From: a virus
Lineage: Duplodnaviria; Heunggongvirae; Uroviricota; Caudoviricetes
Direction: 5' to 3' (one strand)
Length of the DNA: 8,949 bases
IMG/VR virus record: IMGVR_UViG_2534681697_000024
The notes beneath the pieces are model-generated. The model did not search any database and was not told the DNA's origin. It saw only the letters and a program-made list of their open reading frames with translations. Each line of letters opens with the position of its first letter. Position 1 is the stretch's first letter. The translations under genes were made by a program, and so were the position numbers. Shown one piece after another: positions 1 through 8,890 of the stretch.

Positions 1-475
<475 letters not shown>

Positions 476-1873
476 ATGCCGCGCACTGTAACACATAATC
501 CGGATAGCCCCAATAATGACGATGTTTTAGCCGCATCTGAAAAATGGGACGCCTGTAAACCCCCCTATACCAGCGCACACATGAAAATCTGTGTTGCTGC
601 CGCCAAAATCATCCTCGCTGCTTCCGGCGTGGCTCGCCGTTCCAAATACGAAAAAGAGAACTATCTCCGTATCGATTTCAGCAAAGCCGGTAAGGTTACA
701 TTTTACGCCGAGTTTCCAAAAAAGATGGGCCTCAAAGGTAAAAAGCTCGGCGAGTGGCCGGAGCTCGCTATCCAGCTGGCGCGCGAAAAAGCACTAGGTA
801 TGGCTGACGGTGGACTGTGGGCAGAGTCCGTACATGCAGCGCTGGAAATGTACCGGGATGACCTCAAAGCCAAAGTAGCCCGGCAGAAGCTGAGCCCGGA
901 CAGTTTCACAACCTACGGGGTGCGTATCGACCGGATTAAAGCAACGTTCGGCGAGCGTGAGGTGTTCAGCGACGTAACATACAATCGGCTGGTGGAAGTG
1001 CTGGACGAGTGGATCGCCACTCGCTCGAACAATAACGCCCTGGAGTTGTTTGCCGAGCTCCGTCGGTTCTGGAAGTTCTGCGCACCTACTCTTTGCAACG
1101 GCCGCAATGTTGCCGCCAGTCTGCCAGATGATTATGTTTCCTCCCGCGCACAGAAACCTACCCCCACACGGCTTTTTACCGATATTGAATCAATCGCCCG
1201 ACTCTGGCTCAATGTTGCTGCCTGCACCTCTGTACACCAGAAGAATGCTGTTCGCTTCATGATCATCACTGGTGTTCGTCCGATTAATGTCCATAACCTG
1301 CGCTGGGACTACGTTTACGAGGAGGCTGGTGAAATTGTTTATCCGGAAGGGGTTATCGGCATGCGAGGGGCTATGAAAACACAAAAGGCTTTCCGCCTGC
1401 CGATAACGCCTGAGATCCGGCGGATTATCGACGAGCAGAAAGCTTGGCGTGATTCAGTTCCTGAGTGCAACAGGGATTATGTATTTTTGCAGCCACGTGA
1501 TCCAATGCAGCCATTTTCAAAACGATCACTGGATAAGCTGGTGAAAACATACAGCCCGGACGGGGCTGTAAAAGGAATAAAACATGATGGGACTGTTAAA
1601 GGGAAAGACGGTGCATTTAATACGATGTGCCGTAAATTCCTTAAGAGCAATGTTATTGCCTTGATGAAGGAAAGAGGCTATTCCCGCTCAGACCGAAGGG
1701 AAATCAGCCTCCTTTGCCTTCACCACTCCAGCAAGTCAGATGACCCGATGGCAGAACATTACGACTTTTCTGATGAGATTTTACAGGAAGAGATTGCGTT
1801 GAAGCGCGAAGCTTTCGAGGCTCACGAGCGGAGCATACTTGCGCAGGTGGCATTGCTACGGCGGCGAGGTTAA
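476..1873 (+). CDS. int: Tyrosine site-specific integrase, P4-like family (465 aa from ATG 476; ORF track opens at TTG 470)
   Basis: AAGGA (465-469) 6 nt before ATG 476; arm-binding-like N-terminal region (YLRIDFSKAGKVTFYAEF); catalytic-core-like segments MIITGVRPINVHNLRWDYV, AMKTQKAFRLPIT, LCLHHSSKSDDPMAEHY. Unusual 50-aa N-terminal leader, so start is uncertain (alternative ATG 578 has no SD). Confidence 0.8.
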   Translation: MPRTVTHNPDSPNNDDVLAASEKWDACKPPYTSAHMKICVAAAKIILAASGVARRSKYEKENYLRIDFSKAGKVTFYAEFPKKMGLKGKKLGEWPELAIQLAREKALGMADGGLWAESVHAALEMYRDDLKAKVARQKLSPDSFTTYGVRIDRIKATFGEREVFSDVTYNRLVEVLDEWIATRSNNNALELFAELRRFWKFCAPTLCNGRNVAASLPDDYVSSRAQKPTPTRLFTDIESIARLWLNVAACTSVHQKNAVRFMIITGVRPINVHNLRWDYVYEEAGEIVYPEGVIGMRGAMKTQKAFRLPITPEIRRIIDEQKAWRDSVPECNRDYVFLQPRDPMQPFSKRSLDKLVKTYSPDGAVKGIKHDGTVKGKDGAFNTMCRKFLKSNVIALMKERGYSRSDRREISLLCLHHSSKSDDPMAEHYDFSDEILQEEIALKREAFEAHERSILAQVALLRRRG

Positions 1874-2070
1874 TACTGGCTGCGACATTTTTGAATAAAA
1901 GCGTCGACATTTCGGCGCTCATAACGAACCACTTTTGCACTGAAACGAATTGGTGCCAGGATAGCCCGATGACGATGCTTAATATTCCACTCACATAGTG
2001 TTTTCTGTGTAATACCTAATTTTTGGCATACTTCATCCGGGGTGAGTAAATCGTCGGGTTTCTCGCTCAT
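1870..2070 (-). CDS. AlpA/Xis-family small DNA-binding protein (excisionase-like), 66 aa
   Basis: ATG at 2070-2068 with AGAGG SD inside the 3' end of the upstream gene; LLTPDEVCQKLGITQKTLCEW...PIRFSAKVVRYERRNVDAFI fits the AlpA/excisionase HTH pattern; start overlaps the stop of the 533-aa gene (ATGA). Confidence 0.75.
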   Translation of the reverse strand: MSEKPDDLLTPDEVCQKLGITQKTLCEWNIKHRHRAILAPIRFSAKVVRYERRNVDAFIQKCRSQY

Positions 2071-3668
2071 GCTATACCTCTCTTTTTCATGGCATCGAGC
2101 AGGATGTCCTGCACTGTTCGTTTTGAGTTGCGCTGCTCCATCACCATTTCGTCCATAGTGTCGGCAGCAATAATGTGGTGAATAAATACCGGACGATTGT
2201 GTCCGGCCTGTATCTGTCTGGTTGGGCCGATACGTTCAATAATTTGCTGATATTGCTCCAGGTCCCACCAGTGTGAGAAAAATACCAGTATATATCCGCC
2301 GTCCTGCATGTTCAGACCGTGGCCCGCGCTGGCTGGGTGTGCAAAGAGAACAGGAATCTTTCCGGAATTCCAGTCACGTAGTGTCTGTGGATCCTGGTCG
2401 AGGTGACGACCGCGAGGAAATGCTTTAAGCAAGCGTTCAAGATCGTGTTTCCAGTGATAAGCAACCAGCACAGGTGCGCCAGCTGCTTCGGTCAGTATGC
2501 TGTCCAGCGCCTGTAGTTTGGTGTCATGCAGTTCTGACCAACTTCCGGCGTCGTCTGTGTATACTGCGCCACTGGCGATTTGCAGACACTTCAGTGTCTT
2601 TGCCGCGGCGTTCGGTGCTTCGATGCCTTCGTCTATTTGTTCCTGTTTTAGTGAAGGGCGGGGAAGATTCTGGGGCTGGAATAGCCGTCCGGCCCAACGA
2701 CCGGTACGTGACGCCCCGCAGAACTGTAGCGTACCGCGTAAGCGCCCGTCGTGGCTTACGCCTTTCATCAGTGCCTTGTATTTACTGGTGCTGGTAGTAC
2801 TGGCCTGCAGGCGGATAGCCAGCATTTCTTTCACGGCAGATGGTAAATCGGGGTCGGCTATACGACGTTCTAGGGTACTGCGTTGCATGTCTGGTAGCTC
2901 CACACCGTAGGATTCAACGATGTGCTTAATCAACGCGTCCCGTTGTGTGGCTGCCTGCACTTCGCCATCAGTCATTTCCTGTGTACGCTTTGCCAGGCGC
3001 TTTTGCTCCTGGTCTACCGCTTCGATCGCAGCGCGCGCGAGTTGCATGTCCATGCAGACGCCCCGGTCGTTGATCTGCTGATCACGATGCCAGAGCGCCA
3101 GTTCTGTCCCCTGATAATTCCACTTCGGCAGACGGTTATAGACTTCGCGCATTGCCTCGATATCCAGTCCGGCGTAAGCAACAAAGCGCCGCCATTCTTC
3201 CGGGTGGGTTTTGCTGGTGGCCCGGCGCAGTTTGCTGTTTTTCGGGCGTGGCTTACAGAACAGCTGGATCAGCGCTTTACCTTCTTTGTCCTTCGCTTTG
3301 TCTTGCGGGACGCCTAGTACTTCGCAGAGTTCCCCCAGAGACCCCGGGAGACCGTGCGCCAGCGCCTGCACCATTGTGTCGCGCCAACGTTCGACTGGCG
3401 GTGCCAGGCGCGGCATTGCATAACGCAGGACGGTGCGGTCGAAGTGAGAGTTATGAAAATAAAGCAGGGTTTCAGGGGCTGCGATTGCTTCATATAAGCC
3501 GTGTGGAATACCACCACCGGCAGTGATATCCCACACGTTTACGGGCCCGTCGTTGATAGCCCATGCGAACAGCATCACTTCAACGCCTTCGGCATACGCA
3601 TGGGTACCGTTCGTAATAGGGATTTCGCAATAGGTTTCCAGGTCGCCCCAGAGAATGTTTTCAGACAA
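2067..3668 (-). CDS. Chimeric 533-aa protein: N-terminal T7/PolA-type DEDDy 3'-5' exonuclease, central PolA-like segment, C-terminal SNF2-like helicase C domain; function unknown
   Basis: TTG start at 3668 with GGAGGA SD 7 nt upstream. Exo I DLET (aa 9-12), Exo II FHNSHFD (71-77), Exo III YAGLD (165-169); TGRWAGRLFQPQNLP (322-336) has the spacing of the PolA TGRLSSxxPNLQNIP motif; LFAHPASAGHGLNMQ (441-455) and WWDLEQYQQIIERIGPTRQ (467-485) resemble helicase motifs V/VI. No GxxGxGK[ST] Walker A, no PolA motif B or C. Confidence 0.85.
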   Translation of the reverse strand: MSENILWGDLETYCEIPITNGTHAYAEGVEVMLFAWAINDGPVNVWDITAGGGIPHGLYEAIAAPETLLYFHNSHFDRTVLRYAMPRLAPPVERWRDTMVQALAHGLPGSLGELCEVLGVPQDKAKDKEGKALIQLFCKPRPKNSKLRRATSKTHPEEWRRFVAYAGLDIEAMREVYNRLPKWNYQGTELALWHRDQQINDRGVCMDMQLARAAIEAVDQEQKRLAKRTQEMTDGEVQAATQRDALIKHIVESYGVELPDMQRSTLERRIADPDLPSAVKEMLAIRLQASTTSTSKYKALMKGVSHDGRLRGTLQFCGASRTGRWAGRLFQPQNLPRPSLKQEQIDEGIEAPNAAAKTLKCLQIASGAVYTDDAGSWSELHDTKLQALDSILTEAAGAPVLVAYHWKHDLERLLKAFPRGRHLDQDPQTLRDWNSGKIPVLFAHPASAGHGLNMQDGGYILVFFSHWWDLEQYQQIIERIGPTRQIQAGHNRPVFIHHIIAADTMDEMVMEQRNSKRTVQDILLDAMKKRGIA

Positions 3669-3696
3669 GACAGGGTCCTCCGTGGACTAAACGGTG

Positions 3697-3723
3697 ATAA
3701 AAAGCCCCTGGCTGAGCAGGGGC
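3697..3723 (-). terminator. Rho-independent terminator/attenuator between the Bro-N gene and the 533-aa gene (minus strand)
   Basis: Perfect 7-bp GC-rich stem GCCCCTG (3704-3710) / CAGGGGC (3717-3723), 6-nt loop, followed on the minus strand by TTTTTAT (complement of 3697-3703). Confidence 0.5.
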
Positions 3724-3734
3724 GGATTGAATGA

Positions 3735-4511
3735 TTAACGAGGTAAAGTGGGTGGAATATATCTGCCGATGCGGTCTTCTATGGTCGGCAGAGCACACAT
3801 GCTGTCGCTGAAGCGATCATGCAACCGGTAAACCAGTTTCGAATCCATTTTTTCGAGAGCTGGCATTAATTGCGCCTGCCAGATTTCATTAATACGTCGG
3901 AAGTTATGACAGATGGCGCGGAGATTGTTGATGAACATTTCCTTCTCTGCGTCAGTGACTTCTGTCTTCGCTTTCTGAATACGCTTTGTACAGCCGTTCC
4001 GGTAGAAGCGATCCTGCGCAGCGACAGCCTCATCCACGGTTGGATAGCACCCTACGTAAACGCTTTTCTCTCCGTTCCATGCGTAGGCTCTGTACGGGTT
4101 GTATTTGCTCCGGTGATGGTAAACCATCTTCGGCAGACACTCCCTGTGCGGCGCCAGTACCGTGGAGGACTGCGGAATAGCGGTTTCTTTCTCTATAAGA
4201 TCAAGCACCCAACGGCGAAATTCTTTTGCTACCGGCGTTGTTGCGAACATCGCTACCAGGTGGGCACCGCGTAGGGAGAAAATACGCACATCTTTTTCTC
4301 GTAAGCTATTGTTGATCCCGTTGAACCTCATTTTGAGGTTGATTGACATGCAAGGAGTAAACTCATCCGAGTTGCGGTTGTATATCTGGGTGATTTTATC
4401 GCCGCGCGAATATTCCAGTGCAGTAGCCAAAGTCGCGGCGGTGAACCACTGCTTACCGTTGTGTTCGATCGTTTCGAGAACGTGGGATTTGAATACGGGT
4501 TGAGTACTCAT
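3735..4511 (-). CDS. Bro-N (antirepressor-like) N-terminal domain fused to an AP2-like DNA-binding domain, 258 aa from ATG 4511
   Basis: ATG at 4511-4509 with AAGGA SD 9 nt upstream; Bro-N-like WFTAATLATALEYS...IFSLRGAHLVAMFATTPVAKEFRRWVLDLIEK; AP2-like YRAYAWNGEKSVYVGCYPTVDEAVAAQDRFY. The ORF-track extension to 4628 is very basic, lacks an SD and overlaps the IS91 end. Confidence 0.75.
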   Translation of the reverse strand: MSTQPVFKSHVLETIEHNGKQWFTAATLATALEYSRGDKITQIYNRNSDEFTPCMSINLKMRFNGINNSLREKDVRIFSLRGAHLVAMFATTPVAKEFRRWVLDLIEKETAIPQSSTVLAPHRECLPKMVYHHRSKYNPYRAYAWNGEKSVYVGCYPTVDEAVAAQDRFYRNGCTKRIQKAKTEVTDAEKEMFINNLRAICHNFRRINEIWQAQLMPALEKMDSKLVYRLHDRFSDSMCALPTIEDRIGRYIPPTLPR

Positions 4512-4697
4512 AGTTTTATGTCCTTGACGTATAGGAAATTGAAAAACCAGACGATACCGCTGTCCACGCCTTATGCCACGTGAGCTTTTCTGCTTTTCCC
4601 TCCACTCCGGTGTTTTCTCTCTCTGCATGGTCGGTTTTTATACAGTAACAGGCTGTTTTTTATACTTGCACCGATTCCCGGGCACACTTAGCCTGTG

Positions 4698-5906
4698 TCA
4701 GGCCGGCATATACCTCAGCAGACTGATATCCCGCGCGTTTTTCTTCAGCCCCTCCACATTCAGTCCCGCGATGGCCCGGCGGTATACCATCCGGCCGCCA
4801 CACAGCTCGCATTCGAACGGGTCACGACTCAGGAACTGTTTCACCATTTGTGCATAGCACACTTTCGCCACTGGTTCCGGTTTATCCATCCCCAGAGCAC
4901 GGTACACCTGCGGCAGCTTCTCTCCACACACCCGGTTGGCAAGGAACCCGAAGTATCTCACCATCTTAAAAAACTTCTCCGGGATGTGCTGTTTCAGCCT
5001 CGCGACCAGCTCACGCTGTGTCAGCGTTTCCGTCGCCGTTTCTCCCGTTTTGTGGTCCAGGTAACGGAAGCTCAGGCTCGCCCCTCCGTTGTAATGTGCC
5101 AGCCGGGAGGCCGCTATCGGCGGCTTCTTCAGATAACGACCCAGGTAGCGCGCCGTATTCCTCCCGCCGGCCGTTTTTTTCGACATGTACACATGCCAGT
5201 ATTTTCCTCCGGCTTTCAGCACCAGGCTTCTCCACTGTGATTCCGTCGTGATATGTGACAACGACTCCGGCATCGCCAGCCCCTCTGACCACGCTTTCAG
5301 AAGCAGCTGCCGCATATTCCACATCCACCGTGAACGCATCGCGTCTTTCAGGAAGCTCAGCTTTTTCCACTGACCATGCTTATTCAGACCTCCACAGGTT
5401 ACAGACACATGTACATGCGGATGCCAGTTGAGACGACGGCCATACGTGTGGATGGCGCAGAAGATACCGGGTTCCTGCCCCCGTTTCCGGGCGGCATACA
5501 GCAGATTCTCCACCGCCAGACGGCACACGTCATTCAGCAGCCACCGGTTGCTTTCGAACACCGGCCACAGCGTGTCCGGCAGGGTGAAGACCAGGTGTAC
5601 CCAGTCGCAGTCAGGAAGACGATTCAGCTGTGTCGCTATCCACAGGTCTGTGGCCTTTTTTCCGCAGGACGGGCAGGCACGGCTGCCGCATGAGTTAGTG
5701 ACGTATCTGACGTGGGGGCACTCAGGTTTATCGCAGTTGTATTCCTTCACGCCCAGTATCCGCGTGCCGCAGGCCAGCATTTTGGTGACAGCCTCAACCT
5801 CGATATCGCGCAGACCGCCCGCATCCAGGAAGGACGTCCAGCACTGGTTGGCTGTGAACAGGCGTTTCAGCGGTCGGGGCTGAAAATCACCACCACTTCG
5901 GGTCAT
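4698..5906 (-). CDS. tnpA: IS91-family HUH transposase, 402 aa
   Basis: N-terminal Cys cluster (CDKPECPHVRYVTNSCGSRACPSCGKK), HUH-type motif HPHVHVSV, paired tyrosines ARYLGRYLKKPP. Confidence 0.9.
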   Translation of the reverse strand: MTRSGGDFQPRPLKRLFTANQCWTSFLDAGGLRDIEVEAVTKMLACGTRILGVKEYNCDKPECPHVRYVTNSCGSRACPSCGKKATDLWIATQLNRLPDCDWVHLVFTLPDTLWPVFESNRWLLNDVCRLAVENLLYAARKRGQEPGIFCAIHTYGRRLNWHPHVHVSVTCGGLNKHGQWKKLSFLKDAMRSRWMWNMRQLLLKAWSEGLAMPESLSHITTESQWRSLVLKAGGKYWHVYMSKKTAGGRNTARYLGRYLKKPPIAASRLAHYNGGASLSFRYLDHKTGETATETLTQRELVARLKQHIPEKFFKMVRYFGFLANRVCGEKLPQVYRALGMDKPEPVAKVCYAQMVKQFLSRDPFECELCGGRMVYRRAIAGLNVEGLKKNARDISLLRYMPA

Positions 5907-6159
5907 CCGCCTTCATCTCCGCTTCTGTTTCGTATAAATCAAAACGACGGCAGGTATGGCAGAACGTGACGTATTCGTACGGTGAATCCGGGTACATTTT
6001 GTGGAAGGTTTCCCAGAAACAGACCGTGCAGGAGGGATGACCGGTGATAAAGTCTGCAAATACGGACTTATAAGGGTGATTATTGGCTCTGGCGACGGCT
6101 TTCAGAACCTCTTTCACCATTCTGGTGTGGACTTTCTGGTGCTCCAGGTTGTGTGACAT
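5887..6159 (-). CDS. Small Cys/His-rich ORF upstream of and overlapping IS91 tnpA (90 aa); possible IS91 accessory ORF
   Basis: ATG at 6159-6157; overlaps tnpA start by 20 nt; HPSCTVCFWETFH...FCHTCRR metal-binding-like pattern; position matches the small upstream ORF of IS91-type elements; weak SD. Confidence 0.4.
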   Translation of the reverse strand: MSHNLEHQKVHTRMVKEVLKAVARANNHPYKSVFADFITGHPSCTVCFWETFHKMYPDSPYEYVTFCHTCRRFDLYETEAEMKADDPKWW

Positions 6160-6512
6160 GGGAACTCATTCTGGATGGTTACTCTGAAAGCTCATATTCT
6201 GCCACACCCCGATTTGCAGCCGCCAGGCTGCCGTGGTTCTATTTTTGTTCAGAATCCCTGTGTTCAGCAGGGCGGTCAGGTACTTGAACACCGCATACAA
6301 GAACGGCCCGTATCCTTAGCCTTTCGGCTGTTTTTCGGTATACGCGCTACCCGACCATATCTGAAAATGGACATAAAAAATCCGCATGACTGACGGGCGC
6401 GGTTTCCGCTTGTATAGGTGTGTTCAGCACCATGAAGCGGAATATAGCCCCGTTAATGCGGTGTTGTCAAATCATGTAGGCCTTATCTTGCTGTAAGCCG
6501 CGCCATTCGGGC

Positions 6513-6548: not shown

Positions 6549-7109
6549 TCATGCAGCCTTTCGCTCTCCTTCGATGAGTTCCTCTATTTTGTGCACTCCA
6601 GCCTCGTTGTACCGAAATGTTTCAACCTGCTTGTCACTGTGCGCCGATTTGTCGATGAACCACTTCCCGTACTTTTCTGTTTTGAGCATGTAGGTGTTGG
6701 CTATGCGTCCTACCTTGTTGGCTGAAATACCGTAGCGCTGGCCGACTTCCGTAGCAGAGTAGTAGTGCTCTGAGATAGCTGGCAGAGGAACAACATCGCG
6801 ACCAACAATCGGGGTGAACACTCCAGCTACTGCTGCCTGCTTTGATTCTGAGGACAGATTCGGGAACATATTCACCAGTCGATCCGCCACGTTCAAAGCT
6901 ATTTCCATGGCTCGCGCACGGTCTAGGCTACTTTCTGGTTGCGGTACTGGTTGAGGATGGTTGGCAACCTTTTCGCGCTGATTGAAGTAGCCGTCCTCCA
7001 GTTTTTCGAACACGTCCCATGCCTGATCGGTTTCGAGCATCTTCGCGTGACGGGCGGCTCCGCGCTCTGTCCAGAGGATGAGGTGGCGTGCATTTGGGGC
7101 AATTTTCAC
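6549..7109 (-). pseudogene. Antirepressor-like gene remnant (tail of a Bro-N-like domain + KilAC-like C-terminal domain), apparently 5'-truncated
   Basis: ORF begins at GTG 7109 with no SD; frame is open upstream to a stop at 7197-7199 with no start codon; only the last ~40 aa of a Bro-N-like domain (HLILWTERGAARHAKMLETDQAWDVFEKLEDGYF) followed by KilAC-like YSATEVGQRYGISANKVGRIANTYMLKTEKYGKWFIDK. Confidence 0.45.
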
Positions 7110-7224: not shown

Positions 7225-7653
7225 TTAGCCACGGTTAACCTCCTGCGGCGGTTCTGGTAGCTGCATCCAGTGGGTTACCTCTTTGAGATACAGGTCTTCG
7301 CCATCACCGTCATCCCAAGTGGGATTGCCATCATTAAACCAGTCGCCATATACGCCGACCTGAGTGTTGGGGATGTTTGGTGGGTAGTTGTTTTTAAAGT
7401 CAGCTGCTAACACATAGCATTGTCGCTCTCCCATTTCTGGCATTCGCTCACTACAGCTTATCCAACCATCCGGAATTACCGGAGAGTTGCCCGACATCTC
7501 ATTCAACTTGTAAGTCTGGCTTACAGGTTTGGCTTCCAGTTCAGCAAATTTACGCACCAGATATTCAGCGTTTGTTTCGTTAACCTTTAAATCTCGTGGG
7601 ATGCATTTACCTTTCAGAAATCCATCCATCTCAATTAGTGACATTTGTTTCAT
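7225..7653 (-). CDS. DUF551-family phage protein (about 142 aa from ATG 7653; ORF track opens at GTG 7671)
   Basis: C-terminal VTHWMQLPEPPQ and GWISCSERMPEMGERQCYVLA match the DUF551 signature (memory); GGAG 9 nt upstream of ATG 7653. Confidence 0.7.
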   Translation of the reverse strand: MKQMSLIEMDGFLKGKCIPRDLKVNETNAEYLVRKFAELEAKPVSQTYKLNEMSGNSPVIPDGWISCSERMPEMGERQCYVLAADFKNNYPPNIPNTQVGVYGDWFNDGNPTWDDGDGEDLYLKEVTHWMQLPEPPQEVNRG

Positions 7654-7796
7654 TTCTTCCCACTCCGCCACATAGCATTCAGATATTTGTTGTCATTAAC
7701 AGAACCGAAACTCTTTCTCTTAAGCAATTTCTTGAGGTAGCCTGAGTTTAACGGACACTCCTTCCTGAAATAGAATGGCATCAGAAGGAGCTAATA

Positions 7797-8099
7797 ATGA
7801 GCAGAAAAACCCAACGTTACTCTAAAGAGTTCAAAGCCGAAGCTGTCAGAACGGTTCTTGAAAATCAACTTTCGATCAGTGAAGGCGCTTCCCGATTATC
7901 CCTTCCTGAAGGCACTTTAGGACAATGGGTTACCGCCGCCAGAAAAGGGCTCGGTACTCCTGGTTCCCGCACGGTGGCTGAACTGGAATCTGAAATTCTG
8001 CAACTGCGTAAGGCGTTAAATGAAGCTCGCCTTGAGCGAGATATATTAAAAAAAGCAACAGCGTATTTTGCACAGGAGTCGCTGAAAAATACGCGTTAA
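7797..8099 (+). CDS. IS3-family transposase OrfA (HTH + leucine-zipper region), 100 aa
   Basis: AGGAG SD at 7784-7788; MSRKTQRYSKEFKAEAV...LGQWV HTH pattern and C-terminal LERDILKKATAYFAQES typical of IS3-family OrfA; I recall it as IS600-like. Confidence 0.85.
   Translation: MSRKTQRYSKEFKAEAVRTVLENQLSISEGASRLSLPEGTLGQWVTAARKGLGTPGSRTVAELESEILQLRKALNEARLERDILKKATAYFAQESLKNTR
8048..8055 (+). promoter_or_regulatory. Programmed -1 ribosomal frameshift site (A AAA AAA G) of the IS3-family element
   Basis: A7G run in the orfA frame; the -1 frame downstream reads SNSVFCTGVAEKYALIEQWRQQFPIEA, matching the start of IS3-family OrfB. Confidence 0.5.
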
Positions 8100-8215: not shown

Positions 8216-8890
8216 ATGAATTCCCAGACAACAAAAGATATTCCCTGCTTCCGTTCTTATTTGCCTGATGCCCTGCGTTTAAGATTTGAAGATAAACTGA
8301 CCATCCGGGCCATCGCTCAGCGTCTGGGTCTCAGTCATTTCACAATACATACGCTTTTTCAGCGATTTCTTGCATCCGGTATCGCATGGCCATTGCCCGA
8401 TTCAGTTTCATTCGCTCAACTTGACGCCATCCTTTATGCCAACAGAAAGAAGGAATTAACAGAGCCTCAAATCAGAGAAGGCTCATGGCGAAAAGAACGG
8501 CGAACCAGCTATAGCCGTGAATTTAAGGTCCGTCTGGCTAAGCAGGCGTTACAGCCTGGGGCTGTTGTTGCCCGGATCGCCAGAGAACACGATATCAATG
8601 ATAACCTGCTGTTTAAATGGAAAAGCCAGTACGAGGACGGCTTACTGAGCGATGATGACATACAGGAATGCATGCCTGTCCCGGTGGCACTGACTGATAC
8701 GCCGGAGTCGACCAGACCAGTTACAAATCCCTTCTGGCGTAACAAGCATGATGAGCGCCCTGAGGGGGCTCCCGGAAACGTCCCACGGTGCGAGCTGCAT
8801 CTTAAATCAGGTGTGGTAAAACTGTTTGACCCTCTCACTCCGGAACTGTTACGGGCGCTAATCCGCGAAATGAAAGGGGGTATCCGATGA
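8216..8890 (+). CDS. tnpA: IS66-family accessory protein OrfA (TnpA), 224 aa, with an N-terminal extension
   Basis: RRTSYSREFKVRLAKQALQPGAVVARIAREHDINDNLLFKWKSQY HTH region and C-terminal LHLKSGVVKLFDPLTPELLRALIREM match IS66 OrfA; stop overlaps the next start (ATGA). Confidence 0.8.
   Translation: MNSQTTKDIPCFRSYLPDALRLRFEDKLTIRAIAQRLGLSHFTIHTLFQRFLASGIAWPLPDSVSFAQLDAILYANRKKELTEPQIREGSWRKERRTSYSREFKVRLAKQALQPGAVVARIAREHDINDNLLFKWKSQYEDGLLSDDDIQECMPVPVALTDTPESTRPVTNPFWRNKHDERPEGAPGNVPRCELHLKSGVVKLFDPLTPELLRALIREMKGGIR

Follow-up and report, generated by a model that had tools for sequence, protein, structure and literature searches.

An open reading frame that begins as a proofreading exonuclease, continues as part of a DNA polymerase, and ends as part of a helicase raises the question of whether it encodes a new kind of enzyme or arose by an accident between neighboring genes. 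It lies in the window, by which we mean the whole 8,949-nucleotide stretch of DNA analyzed here (IMG/VR record IMGVR_UViG_2534681697_000024, Caudoviricetes). A preliminary description, made from the sequence of the window alone, had placed the ORF at 2067-3668 and had seen in it an architecture that could not be assigned to a characterized family, possibly a nuclease effector against invading DNA or a non-canonical replication or processing factor. The ORF is indeed there, on the minus strand; its 533-residue product is identical to EFW57020.1 of Shigella boydii ATCC 9905, and it starts at a TTG codon with GGAGG 8 nt upstream. Very probably, it is a relic of prophage decay, in which an in-frame deletion joined the front half of a polymerase gene to the back half of a helicase gene. 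It represents ordinary genome decay and not a new enzyme type. The parts of the ORF are as follows.

2067..3668, minus strand: chimeric ORF (pol'::'helicase fusion), 533 aa
3633..3644, minus strand: Exo I motif DLET (D9, E11; aa 9-12)
3438..3458, minus strand: Exo II motif FHNSHFD (D77; aa 71-77)
3162..3176, minus strand: Exo III motif YAGLD (Y165, D169; aa 165-169)
2661..2705, minus strand: TGRWAGRLFQPQNLP (aa 322-336), a family-A polymerase motif upstream of motif A, from the parental polymerase
2632..3668, minus strand: polymerase-only part (aa 1-346), from the 3'-5' exonuclease domain to just past TGR...QNLP
2615..2631, minus strand: deletion junction, a 17-bp microhomology (sense strand CGAAGGCATCGAAGCAC) encoding EGIEA, present as a single copy in the window
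2067..2614, minus strand: helicase-only part (aa 352-533), lobe 2 of a SNF2 ATPase with motifs IV-VI

Parentage of the two halves

Residues 1-351 of the fusion come from a family-A prophage DNA polymerase of 687 aa, of which they form the N-terminal half. Over the polymerase-only part, the DNA is 98% identical to the first half of the intact polymerase genes, and at the protein level residues 1-351 share 97-99% identity with the corresponding N-terminal 350 residues in E. coli prophage and phage polymerases and 58-72% with those of Yersinia, Bordetella, and APSE (named relatives are WP_033809345.1, URC08725.1, Bbp42, and APSE P45). The PHROG profile phrog_17 (DNA polymerase) matches residues 3-340 (8.7e-63), and the Pfam exonuclease profile DNA_pol_A_exo1 gives a weak match (E 0.021), as it also does in the intact parent. 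The three DEDDy motifs reported from the sequence are all present at the residues given for them, and D9, E11, D77, Y165, and D169, singled out in the preliminary description for a conservation check, are invariant in an alignment of 20 homologues. The resemblance of residues 322-336, TGRWAGRLFQPQNLP, to the template-binding motif of PolA, which might have been a chance match, turns out to be inherited: the stretch is invariant in 20 intact polymerase homologues, and it aligns with TGRLSS..PNLQNIP in the solved structure of Pol I (PDB 6vdc). Exo I-III and TGR...QNLP are what the fusion keeps of the Pol I/T7-like family-A polymerase found in temperate phages of the BPP-1, APSE, YeP5, and vB_EcoM-606R2 type, whereas everything after residue 350 of that polymerase, including motifs A, B, and C, is missing. 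In the intact enzyme, motif A (DLSNIEGR) lies at residues 387-394, motif B at about 447-458, and motif C (VHDE) at 639-642. A motif scan of the fusion found no motif A (DxSxxExR), B (KxxxxGxxYG), or C (HDE), and Pfam DNA_pol_A (PF00476), which scores 53 bits on the intact parent, does not match the fusion at E <= 1. Because motifs A, B, and C (residues 387-642 of the parent) have been deleted, the fusion should be unable to polymerize.

A phmmer search with the fusion found no match among PDB sequences at E <= 0.01, and a profile of the intact polymerases gave weak Pol I matches, mostly to the motif A/B region that is absent from the fusion. An AlphaFold model of the N-terminal 350 residues, built with 20 close homologues, reached a pLDDT of 44 and was kept out of the fold search. 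Two alignments were not used for structure prediction: one that put full-length polymerases and helicase fragments alongside the fusion, which forced the non-homologous halves together, and a MAFFT alignment of trimmed sequences, which misplaced the helicase fragments.

The remainder of the fusion derives from the SNF2/DEAD-box helicase encoded in the same prophage replication module (WP_000627621.1, URC08732.1; PHROG 62). Its last 187 residues match residues 347-533 of the fusion at 184 positions, the DNA of the helicase-only part is 99% identical to the 3' end of the intact 463-aa helicase genes, and phrog_62 (DNA helicase) matches residues 345-531 (4.3e-62). Pfam Helicase_C matches residues 384-481, slightly under its gathering score. 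An AlphaFold model of residues 346-533 (pLDDT 82), compared with the PDB by Foldseek, finds lobe 2 of Snf2-family ATPases as its best match (E about 1e-7), with SRCAP, INO80, the C-terminal ATPase part of Fun30, and ISWI at the top (E 3e-7 to 1e-6). The helicase-like C-terminus that had been noticed is therefore real, although it extends over about 187 residues and not the roughly 90 first proposed. It includes VLVAYHWKHD (residues 400-409), which had been taken for a degenerate polymerase motif A but corresponds to positions 330-339 in the intact helicase, where it forms a lobe 2 beta-strand in the region of motif IV. What the fusion lacks is lobe 1, residues 1-276 of the helicase: the intact protein has a Walker A motif (AGMGMGKT) at residue 27, a DExx box (IPDES) at residue 128, and a match to Pfam SNF2-rel_dom (PF00176) at residues 29-184, whereas motif scans and Pfam found no GxxxxGK[ST], DExx, or SNF2-rel_dom in the fusion. 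The absence of Walker A, the DExx box, and PolA motifs B and C, already remarked on from the sequence, was borne out by the motif scan. Since the deletion took away lobe 1, which carries Walker A, DExx, and motif III, the fusion should be unable to hydrolyze ATP or to translocate. An exonuclease joined to half a polymerase and half a helicase is accordingly a fair description of the protein; the idea of an unassignable new architecture falls away, the halves being members of two well-characterized families, phrog_17 and phrog_62.

The junction and its prophage

In intact relatives at the same chromosomal site, next to yfhL, the polymerase and the helicase are separate genes 3.4-6.5 kb apart. 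E. coli EH2252 has the same order of yfhL, integrase, and HTH gene as the window; its helicase gene spans 5067-6458 and its polymerase gene 7990-10053, and the layout is the same in E. coli VL7S7 and in phage vB_EcoM-606R2. At the DNA level, window positions 1-2631 align to EH2252 3001-5631 (99.3%) and positions 2606-3650 to EH2252 8994-10038 (98.2%). These two alignments overlap on the repeat CGAAGGCATCGAAGCAC, which occurs once in the window and twice in both EH2252 and vB_EcoM-606R2, one copy lying in each of the two genes, polymerase and helicase, with identical codon phase. The 40-mer spanning the junction of the fusion is GAACAAATAGACGAAGGCATCGAAGCACCGAACGCCGCGG. Missing from the window are 3,388 bp relative to EH2252 and about 6.5 kb relative to VL7S7. 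As in a fusion pseudogene, both halves are collinear with and nearly identical to separate genes, and one copy of the repeat stands at the junction. Because the 17-bp repeat has the same codon phase in both genes, a deletion between its copies is automatically in frame.

The rest of the window is what remains of a prophage.

1-261, minus strand: yfhL, beside the integrase
470..1873, plus strand: prophage tyrosine integrase, adjoining yfhL and marking the end of the prophage remnant
1870..2070, minus strand: small HTH gene (AlpA/HTH_17-like), overlapping the stop codon of the fusion
3704..3723, minus strand: terminator-like hairpin with a T-run, between the BRO-N gene and the fusion ORF
3735..4628, minus strand: BRO-N domain gene upstream of the fusion, the last prophage gene before the IS91-family insertion
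4698..5906, minus strand: IS91-family (Y2) transposase gene, at the point where prophage homology stops

In intact prophages, the HTH gene overlaps the helicase stop codon in exactly the same way. In the sister strain CP026836, homology extends only about 150 bp upstream of the ORF before an IS66 fragment follows, and IS91, IS66, and IS3 elements erode the remaining prophage. No tRNA was found at the integration site, and no promoter-like site upstream of the fusion ORF. A literature search on the module of DUF2800, DUF2815, polymerase, and helicase yielded only phage genome descriptions, with nothing specific to it.

The parental state would have been a temperate phage like BPP-1, APSE, or YeP5 integrated beside yfhL, with a replication operon that included a complete 687-aa family-A polymerase gene (exonuclease plus polymerase). 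On the same strand, a handful of small cargo genes (VRR-NUC, DUF4406, regulators) would have come next downstream, and after them a complete 463-aa SNF2-type helicase gene. A deletion between the 17-bp copies, likely by replication slippage or short-homology recombination, would have cut away the polymerase gene's 3' half, the helicase gene's 5' half, and all that lay between them. With its replication functions lost, the prophage would then have been eroded further by IS91, IS66, and IS3. Judged from the motifs, at most a 3'-5' exonuclease might survive, as the deletion has physically removed motifs A/B/C of the polymerase and motifs I-III of the helicase; with all DEDDy residues intact, this would be the only plausible activity left, provided that any protein is made.

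Recurrence, selection, and rival explanations

Only one protein cluster at 90% identity, with 32 members, covers the fusion over its full length; all remaining protein matches cover 67-69% of it, corresponding to the polymerase part. The cluster comes mostly from S. boydii and S. dysenteriae, with a few members from E. coli and a fusion from Salmonella Napoli, and includes shorter protein records of 449-502 aa, which may reflect either the choice of start codon or genuine truncation. The junction was absent from all 5,426 complete E. coli genomes, 157 of which hold both genes apart. Comparison at the protein level points to more than one origin. Both halves of the E. coli fusion (P0012) are identical to their intact parents, which marks it as the product of a mishap in the very recent past, with no lineage maintaining it. 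The Salmonella Napoli fusion (P0005; EU383_18575) has a different pol::helicase junction, …SLEQEQI|PVLFAH…. These sequences indicate that E. coli independently underwent the same deletion as Shigella, and that pol::helicase fusions have at least two origins and probably three, in Shigella, E. coli (P0012), and Salmonella (P0005). The in-phase 17-bp repeat explains why the same site is hit again. Recurrent fusions could hint at selection, a counterpoint to reading the ORF as a relic, rather than only at a mutational hot spot together with a bias toward in-frame products, which are the ones noticed as long ORFs.

Wherever the full 533-aa product is recorded in S. boydii and S. dysenteriae, the 1.6-kb ORF has stayed open, and with all five DEDDy residues intact an exonuclease function may have been retained. 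Changes private to the Shigella lineage number 5 non-synonymous to 3 synonymous, compared with 7 to 54 between intact genes (Fisher p = 0.003), a contrast drawn from only 8 changes and 3 references. The corresponding pN/pS of about 0.5 comes from these same few changes and reference sequences, and some of the "private" changes could be older polymorphisms. Two of the private substitutions, N459Y and R512Q, fall at near-invariant positions of the helicase (N in 49 of 50 homologues, R in 48 of 50), and the polymerase-half changes taken alone show no clear relaxation. From these substitutions, the hybrid appears to drift under relaxed selection.

The main rival to decay is that the fusion is a domesticated, functional protein, either a stand-alone 3'-5' exonuclease or a decoy built from the interaction surfaces of polymerase and helicase, which would poison the replisome of related phages as they enter (superinfection exclusion), kept because it is useful to the host. 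Among the S. boydii and S. dysenteriae genomes examined, its ORF survives intact amid destroyed prophage neighbors, its DEDDy residues are intact, it has a plausible ribosome-binding site and TTG start, and E. coli and Salmonella Napoli have fusions of independent origin. However, the private substitutions at near-invariant helicase positions and the raised ratio of non-synonymous to synonymous changes, the recent and accidental character of the E. coli fusion with its halves identical to intact parents, the junction count of 0 in 5,426 complete E. coli genomes, and the terminator-like hairpin directly upstream, where a promoter-like site was not seen, all speak against maintenance, and the in-phase repeat accounts for recurrence at the same site. 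We regard domestication as very unlikely. A defense role finds no support in PADLOC-DB 2.0 either, which gave no significant full-length match; the marginal partial matches (DpdE helicase C-terminus, E 1e-4; DEDDh, E 2e-4) reflect generic lobe 2 and exonuclease folds. The suggested defense nuclease or non-canonical replication factor is thus unsupported for a protein whose halves are 98-99% identical in DNA to two separate intact genes. Very unlikely, in our judgment, is a more specific version in which the hybrids keep a working exonuclease and replisome-interaction surfaces that hinder related superinfecting phages, the 17-bp repeat serving as a breakpoint that repeatedly grounds active prophages; if true, it would explain both the open ORF in S. 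boydii and S. dysenteriae and the independent fusions in E. coli and Salmonella Napoli.

Two further explanations concern the reality and the direction of the event, and we consider both exceedingly improbable. A mis-join during assembly or sequencing could in principle arise where assemblers collapse sequence at a short repeat, as the junction lies in one, but 17 bp is far shorter than the read length, and the same junction recurs in assemblies made independently of one another, among them two complete chromosomes (CP026875.1 and CP026836.1), the ATCC 9905 draft, and several Logan read-set assemblies, with two Shigella alleles that differ at 3 nucleotides (2 non-synonymous, 1 synonymous). The fusion could instead be an ancestral multidomain protein that was split by gene fission in the "intact" prophages, for which the existence of the ORF is the one argument. 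Distribution and parental completeness refute gene fission: the separate polymerase has motifs A, B, and C, the separate helicase has both lobes, and these complete genes are conserved in phages ranging from Bordetella BPP-1 to those of Yersinia, Xylella, and APSE, while the fusion is without the catalytic halves of both proteins and limited to a single 90%-identity cluster.

Probable decay by short-homology deletion

For Shigella biology, decay of the prophage by deletion adds one more documented step of prophage decay at the yfhL site. More generally, striking and apparently impossible domain architectures on genomic islands should first be compared at the DNA level with intact relatives, because in-frame deletions between neighboring genes yield such chimeras. 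The recurrent in-phase repeat is a small curiosity in its own right, an example of a deletion hot spot that generates open hybrid ORFs.

Deletions at short homologies are known from bacterial genomes, and the decay of prophages in IS-rich Shigella is known from comparative genomics; an example of work on the former is reportedly that of Albertini and colleagues from 1982. The event described here resembles these deletions in that a single copy of a short direct repeat remains while the interval between the copies is gone, with IS-mediated erosion adjoining. It is unremarkable apart from the repeat, which is rather long, at 17 bp, and has the same codon phase in two unrelated genes, so that the fusion product stays open and the event recurs.

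A DNA polymerase and a helicase in one reading frame

The product of the minus-strand fusion ORF carries all of the motifs listed in the preliminary description, each at the residue reported there, and a motif check of the 533 residues likewise bears out the absence of Walker A, of a DExx box and of polymerase motifs A, B and C; the observation is therefore real. The features concerned are as follows.

Fusion ORF and its motifs
2067-3668, minus strand: fusion ORF, 533 aa, TTG start with GGAGG 8 nt upstream
aa 9-12: DLET
aa 71-77: FHNSHFD
aa 165-169: YAGLD
aa 322-336: TGRWAGRLFQPQNLP
aa 400-409: VLVAYHWKHD

The accompanying view that this architecture belongs to no characterised family does not hold, as a PHROG profile search splits the fusion into two well-known protein families, DNA polymerase (phrog_17, aa 3-340, E 8.7e-63) and DNA helicase (phrog_62, aa 345-531, E 4.3e-62). 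In Pfam, the Helicase_C and exonuclease matches are both sub-threshold and a match to DNA_pol_A is absent. By tblastn, only aa 4-359 match phage genomes, in genes annotated as DNA polymerase (97% for Escherichia phage vB_EcoM-606R2, 72% for Yersinia YeP4-6, 66% for Bordetella BPP-1, 61% for Xylella Xfas53, and 58% for the APSE phages). The helicase-like character proposed for the C-terminus is confirmed by phrog_62 and by the predicted fold: the AlphaFold model of aa 346-533 (pLDDT 82) has its best PDB matches in lobe 2 of Snf2-family ATPases (SRCAP, INO80, the C-terminal ATPase part of Fun30, and ISWI; E about 1e-7). VLVAYHWKHD, previously taken for a degenerate polymerase motif A, actually belongs to the helicase (residues 330-339) and forms a beta-strand of lobe 2.

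Intact relatives and the 17-bp junction

A megablast search with the window as query, run on 5,426 complete E. coli genomes, turns up related prophages that share its chromosomal location next to yfhL. The genes of one of them, in E. coli EH2252 (L001), run in this order.

Gene order in L001
yfhL, integrase, small HTH gene
DEAD/DEAH (SNF2) helicase, 463 aa
hypothetical protein, VRR-NUC, DUF4406, ANR regulator
DNA polymerase, 687 aa

The same two genes, with other cargo between them, are found in E. coli VL7S7 (L002) and in phage vB_EcoM-606R2 (L010). Each half of the fusion is collinear with one of these two separate genes and nearly identical to it: window 1-2631 aligns to L001 3001-5631 (99.3%) and window 2606-3650 to L001 8994-10038 (98.2%). 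The two alignments overlap in a 17-bp sequence (sense strand CGAAGGCATCGAAGCAC) that is present once in the window, at the junction (2615-2631), and twice in both L001 (5615 and 9003) and L010 (8029 and 12428). The fusion thus joins polymerase residues 1-350 to helicase residues 277-463. Because the polymerase copy (..D EGIEA L..) and the helicase copy (..G EGIEA P..) are read in the same codon phase, a deletion between them is necessarily in frame. Such deletions are generally ascribed to slippage or short-homology recombination, and either process acting between the two copies would have produced the fusion. The window lacks 3,388 bp of the L001 sequence, or about 6.5 kb when an L002-like arrangement is the reference. 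The deleted interval holds every one of the following, so that the fusion has lost all polymerase and ATPase catalytic motifs.

Features of the intact proteins within the deleted interval
Polymerase aa 387: motif A, DLSNIEGR
Polymerase near aa 447: motif B, KVMELGLGYG
Polymerase aa 639: motif C, VHDE
Polymerase: DNA_pol_A, above threshold in Pfam
Helicase aa 27: Walker A, AGMGMGKT
Helicase aa 128: DExx, IPDES
Helicase aa 29-184: SNF2-rel_dom (Pfam)

When the fusion is forced into alignment with the full-length parents, identity is only about 20% over the non-matching halves, which is noise.

The interval between the two genes in the intact relatives (L001 6497-7984, L002 6505-9721, L010 9123-11535) is a variable cargo slot with TIR-like domain proteins, a cytosine methyltransferase, Rha/Ant/Arc regulators, VRR-NUC/PDDEXK nuclease and DUF4406; the deletion has removed it from the Shigella element. 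The L002 polymerase (10203-13037) is annotated as 944 aa, against 687 aa elsewhere; the additional sequence, about 770 nt within the C-terminal half, may be an inserted element. Its PGAP start, equivalent to M32, would remove the Exo I motif, and the TTG start of the window, preceded by GGAGG, seems the better candidate.

Recurrence, distribution and constraint

An E. coli fusion protein, P0012, has the same junction as the window; its N-terminal part is identical to the intact polymerase P0016 (350/350) and its C-terminal part to the intact L001 and L010 helicases (187/187), and the Shigella fusion differs from it in both halves. P0012 most likely reflects a recent deletion at the same 17-bp repeat, independent of the Shigella one. 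The 440-aa Salmonella Napoli protein P0005 has a different junction (…SLEQEQI|PVLFAHPAS…) and hence marks another independent event. The 17-mer is absent from YeP5 and from the L002 helicase, and a match of this kind between these two unrelated genes has a chance expectation of about 2e-4; lacking deep conservation, it looks like a lucky coincidence of one phage sub-lineage, where the in-phase repeat would serve as a recurrent hot spot for in-frame deletion. There is also a detection bias, in that gene callers report in-frame products as long ORFs.

A 401-bp junction probe matches 157 of the 5,426 complete E. coli genomes, in every case with the helicase and polymerase matches apart, and the contiguous junction occurs in none of the 5,426. 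Shigella boydii ATCC 9905 has an identical protein, EFW57020.1, and chromosome CP026875.1 encodes it too. Among 5.8 billion protein clusters, full-length coverage is confined to a single 90%-identity cluster of 32 members dominated by the IS-rich Shigella lineage (S. boydii and S. dysenteriae; a few members carry the label E. coli, and one is a Salmonella Napoli variant); the remaining matches are to the polymerase part and span 67-69% of the query. Many contigs of S. boydii and S. dysenteriae have shorter cluster members on record, P0003, P0006 and P0009 (449, 489 and 474 aa). In these three the exonuclease domain may be genuinely disrupted at its N-terminus, as opposed to a different choice of start codon; the first residues of P0009, MTGI, are foreign.

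Five non-synonymous changes (K178N, L282M, T374A, N459Y, and R512Q) and three synonymous ones are private to the window lineage in a comparison with three intact references, against 7 and 54 in total between intact genes, a raised non-synonymous rate (Fisher's exact p = 0.003, from only eight lineage changes). Of 50 helicase homologues, 49 have N at the position of N459 and 48 have R at that of R512. Between the two Shigella alleles with available DNA, the differences are G41E, M282L and a single synonymous change. The substitution pattern suggests relaxed constraint, with the caveat that few changes underlie it and that part of them may be older than the deletion.

A decaying prophage

Outside the fusion region the prophage is eroded. 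Homology to L002 ends at window 4524, next to an IS91-family gene, and returns only briefly at 6266-6446.

Genes upstream of the fusion ORF
4698-5906, minus strand: IS91-family Y2 transposase gene, in the homology break 4524-6266
6549-7109, minus strand: 186-aa ORF between IS elements, no Pfam match
7225-7671, minus strand: DUF551 protein, 148 aa, between IS elements
7797-8099: IS3-family (IS600-like) orfA, cut off from orfB by the IS66-family element
8216 onward: IS66-family element, with an HTH_Tnp_1 gene at 8216-8890 (224 aa)

The 186-aa and 148-aa ORFs are probably leftovers of the same or another prophage. A 90-aa ORF without a family match (5887-6159) overlaps the start of the IS91-family transposase gene. 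TnpB_IS66 and DDE_Tnp_IS66 follow the HTH_Tnp_1 gene just past the window edge (L003 1-5900), and beyond these IS66-family genes lies an ipaH-type effector gene (LRR_TTSS and NEL). In the sister strain S. boydii CP026836 (L006), similarity continues upstream from the fusion ORF for only about 150 bp, to window 3815, where an IS66 fragment takes over; this fragment and an ipaH gene stand in place of the BRO-N gene. Erosion of the remnant is ongoing, yet the fusion ORF is open in this strain.

A functional protein, acting as an exonuclease or a replisome decoy, still stands as a reading because the ORF remains open and the DEDDy residues are intact, and we consider it very improbable. PADLOC found no defence family; immediately upstream of the ORF is a terminator-like hairpin (3704-3723), and the search for a promoter-like site ahead of the ORF came up empty. 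The fusion protein is probably non-functional or would retain at most a residual 3'-5' exonuclease activity. The fusion is already in public databases under other labels ("hypothetical protein" or "phage-associated DNA polymerase"), and it is an ordinary product of prophage decay, derived from two well-known protein families.
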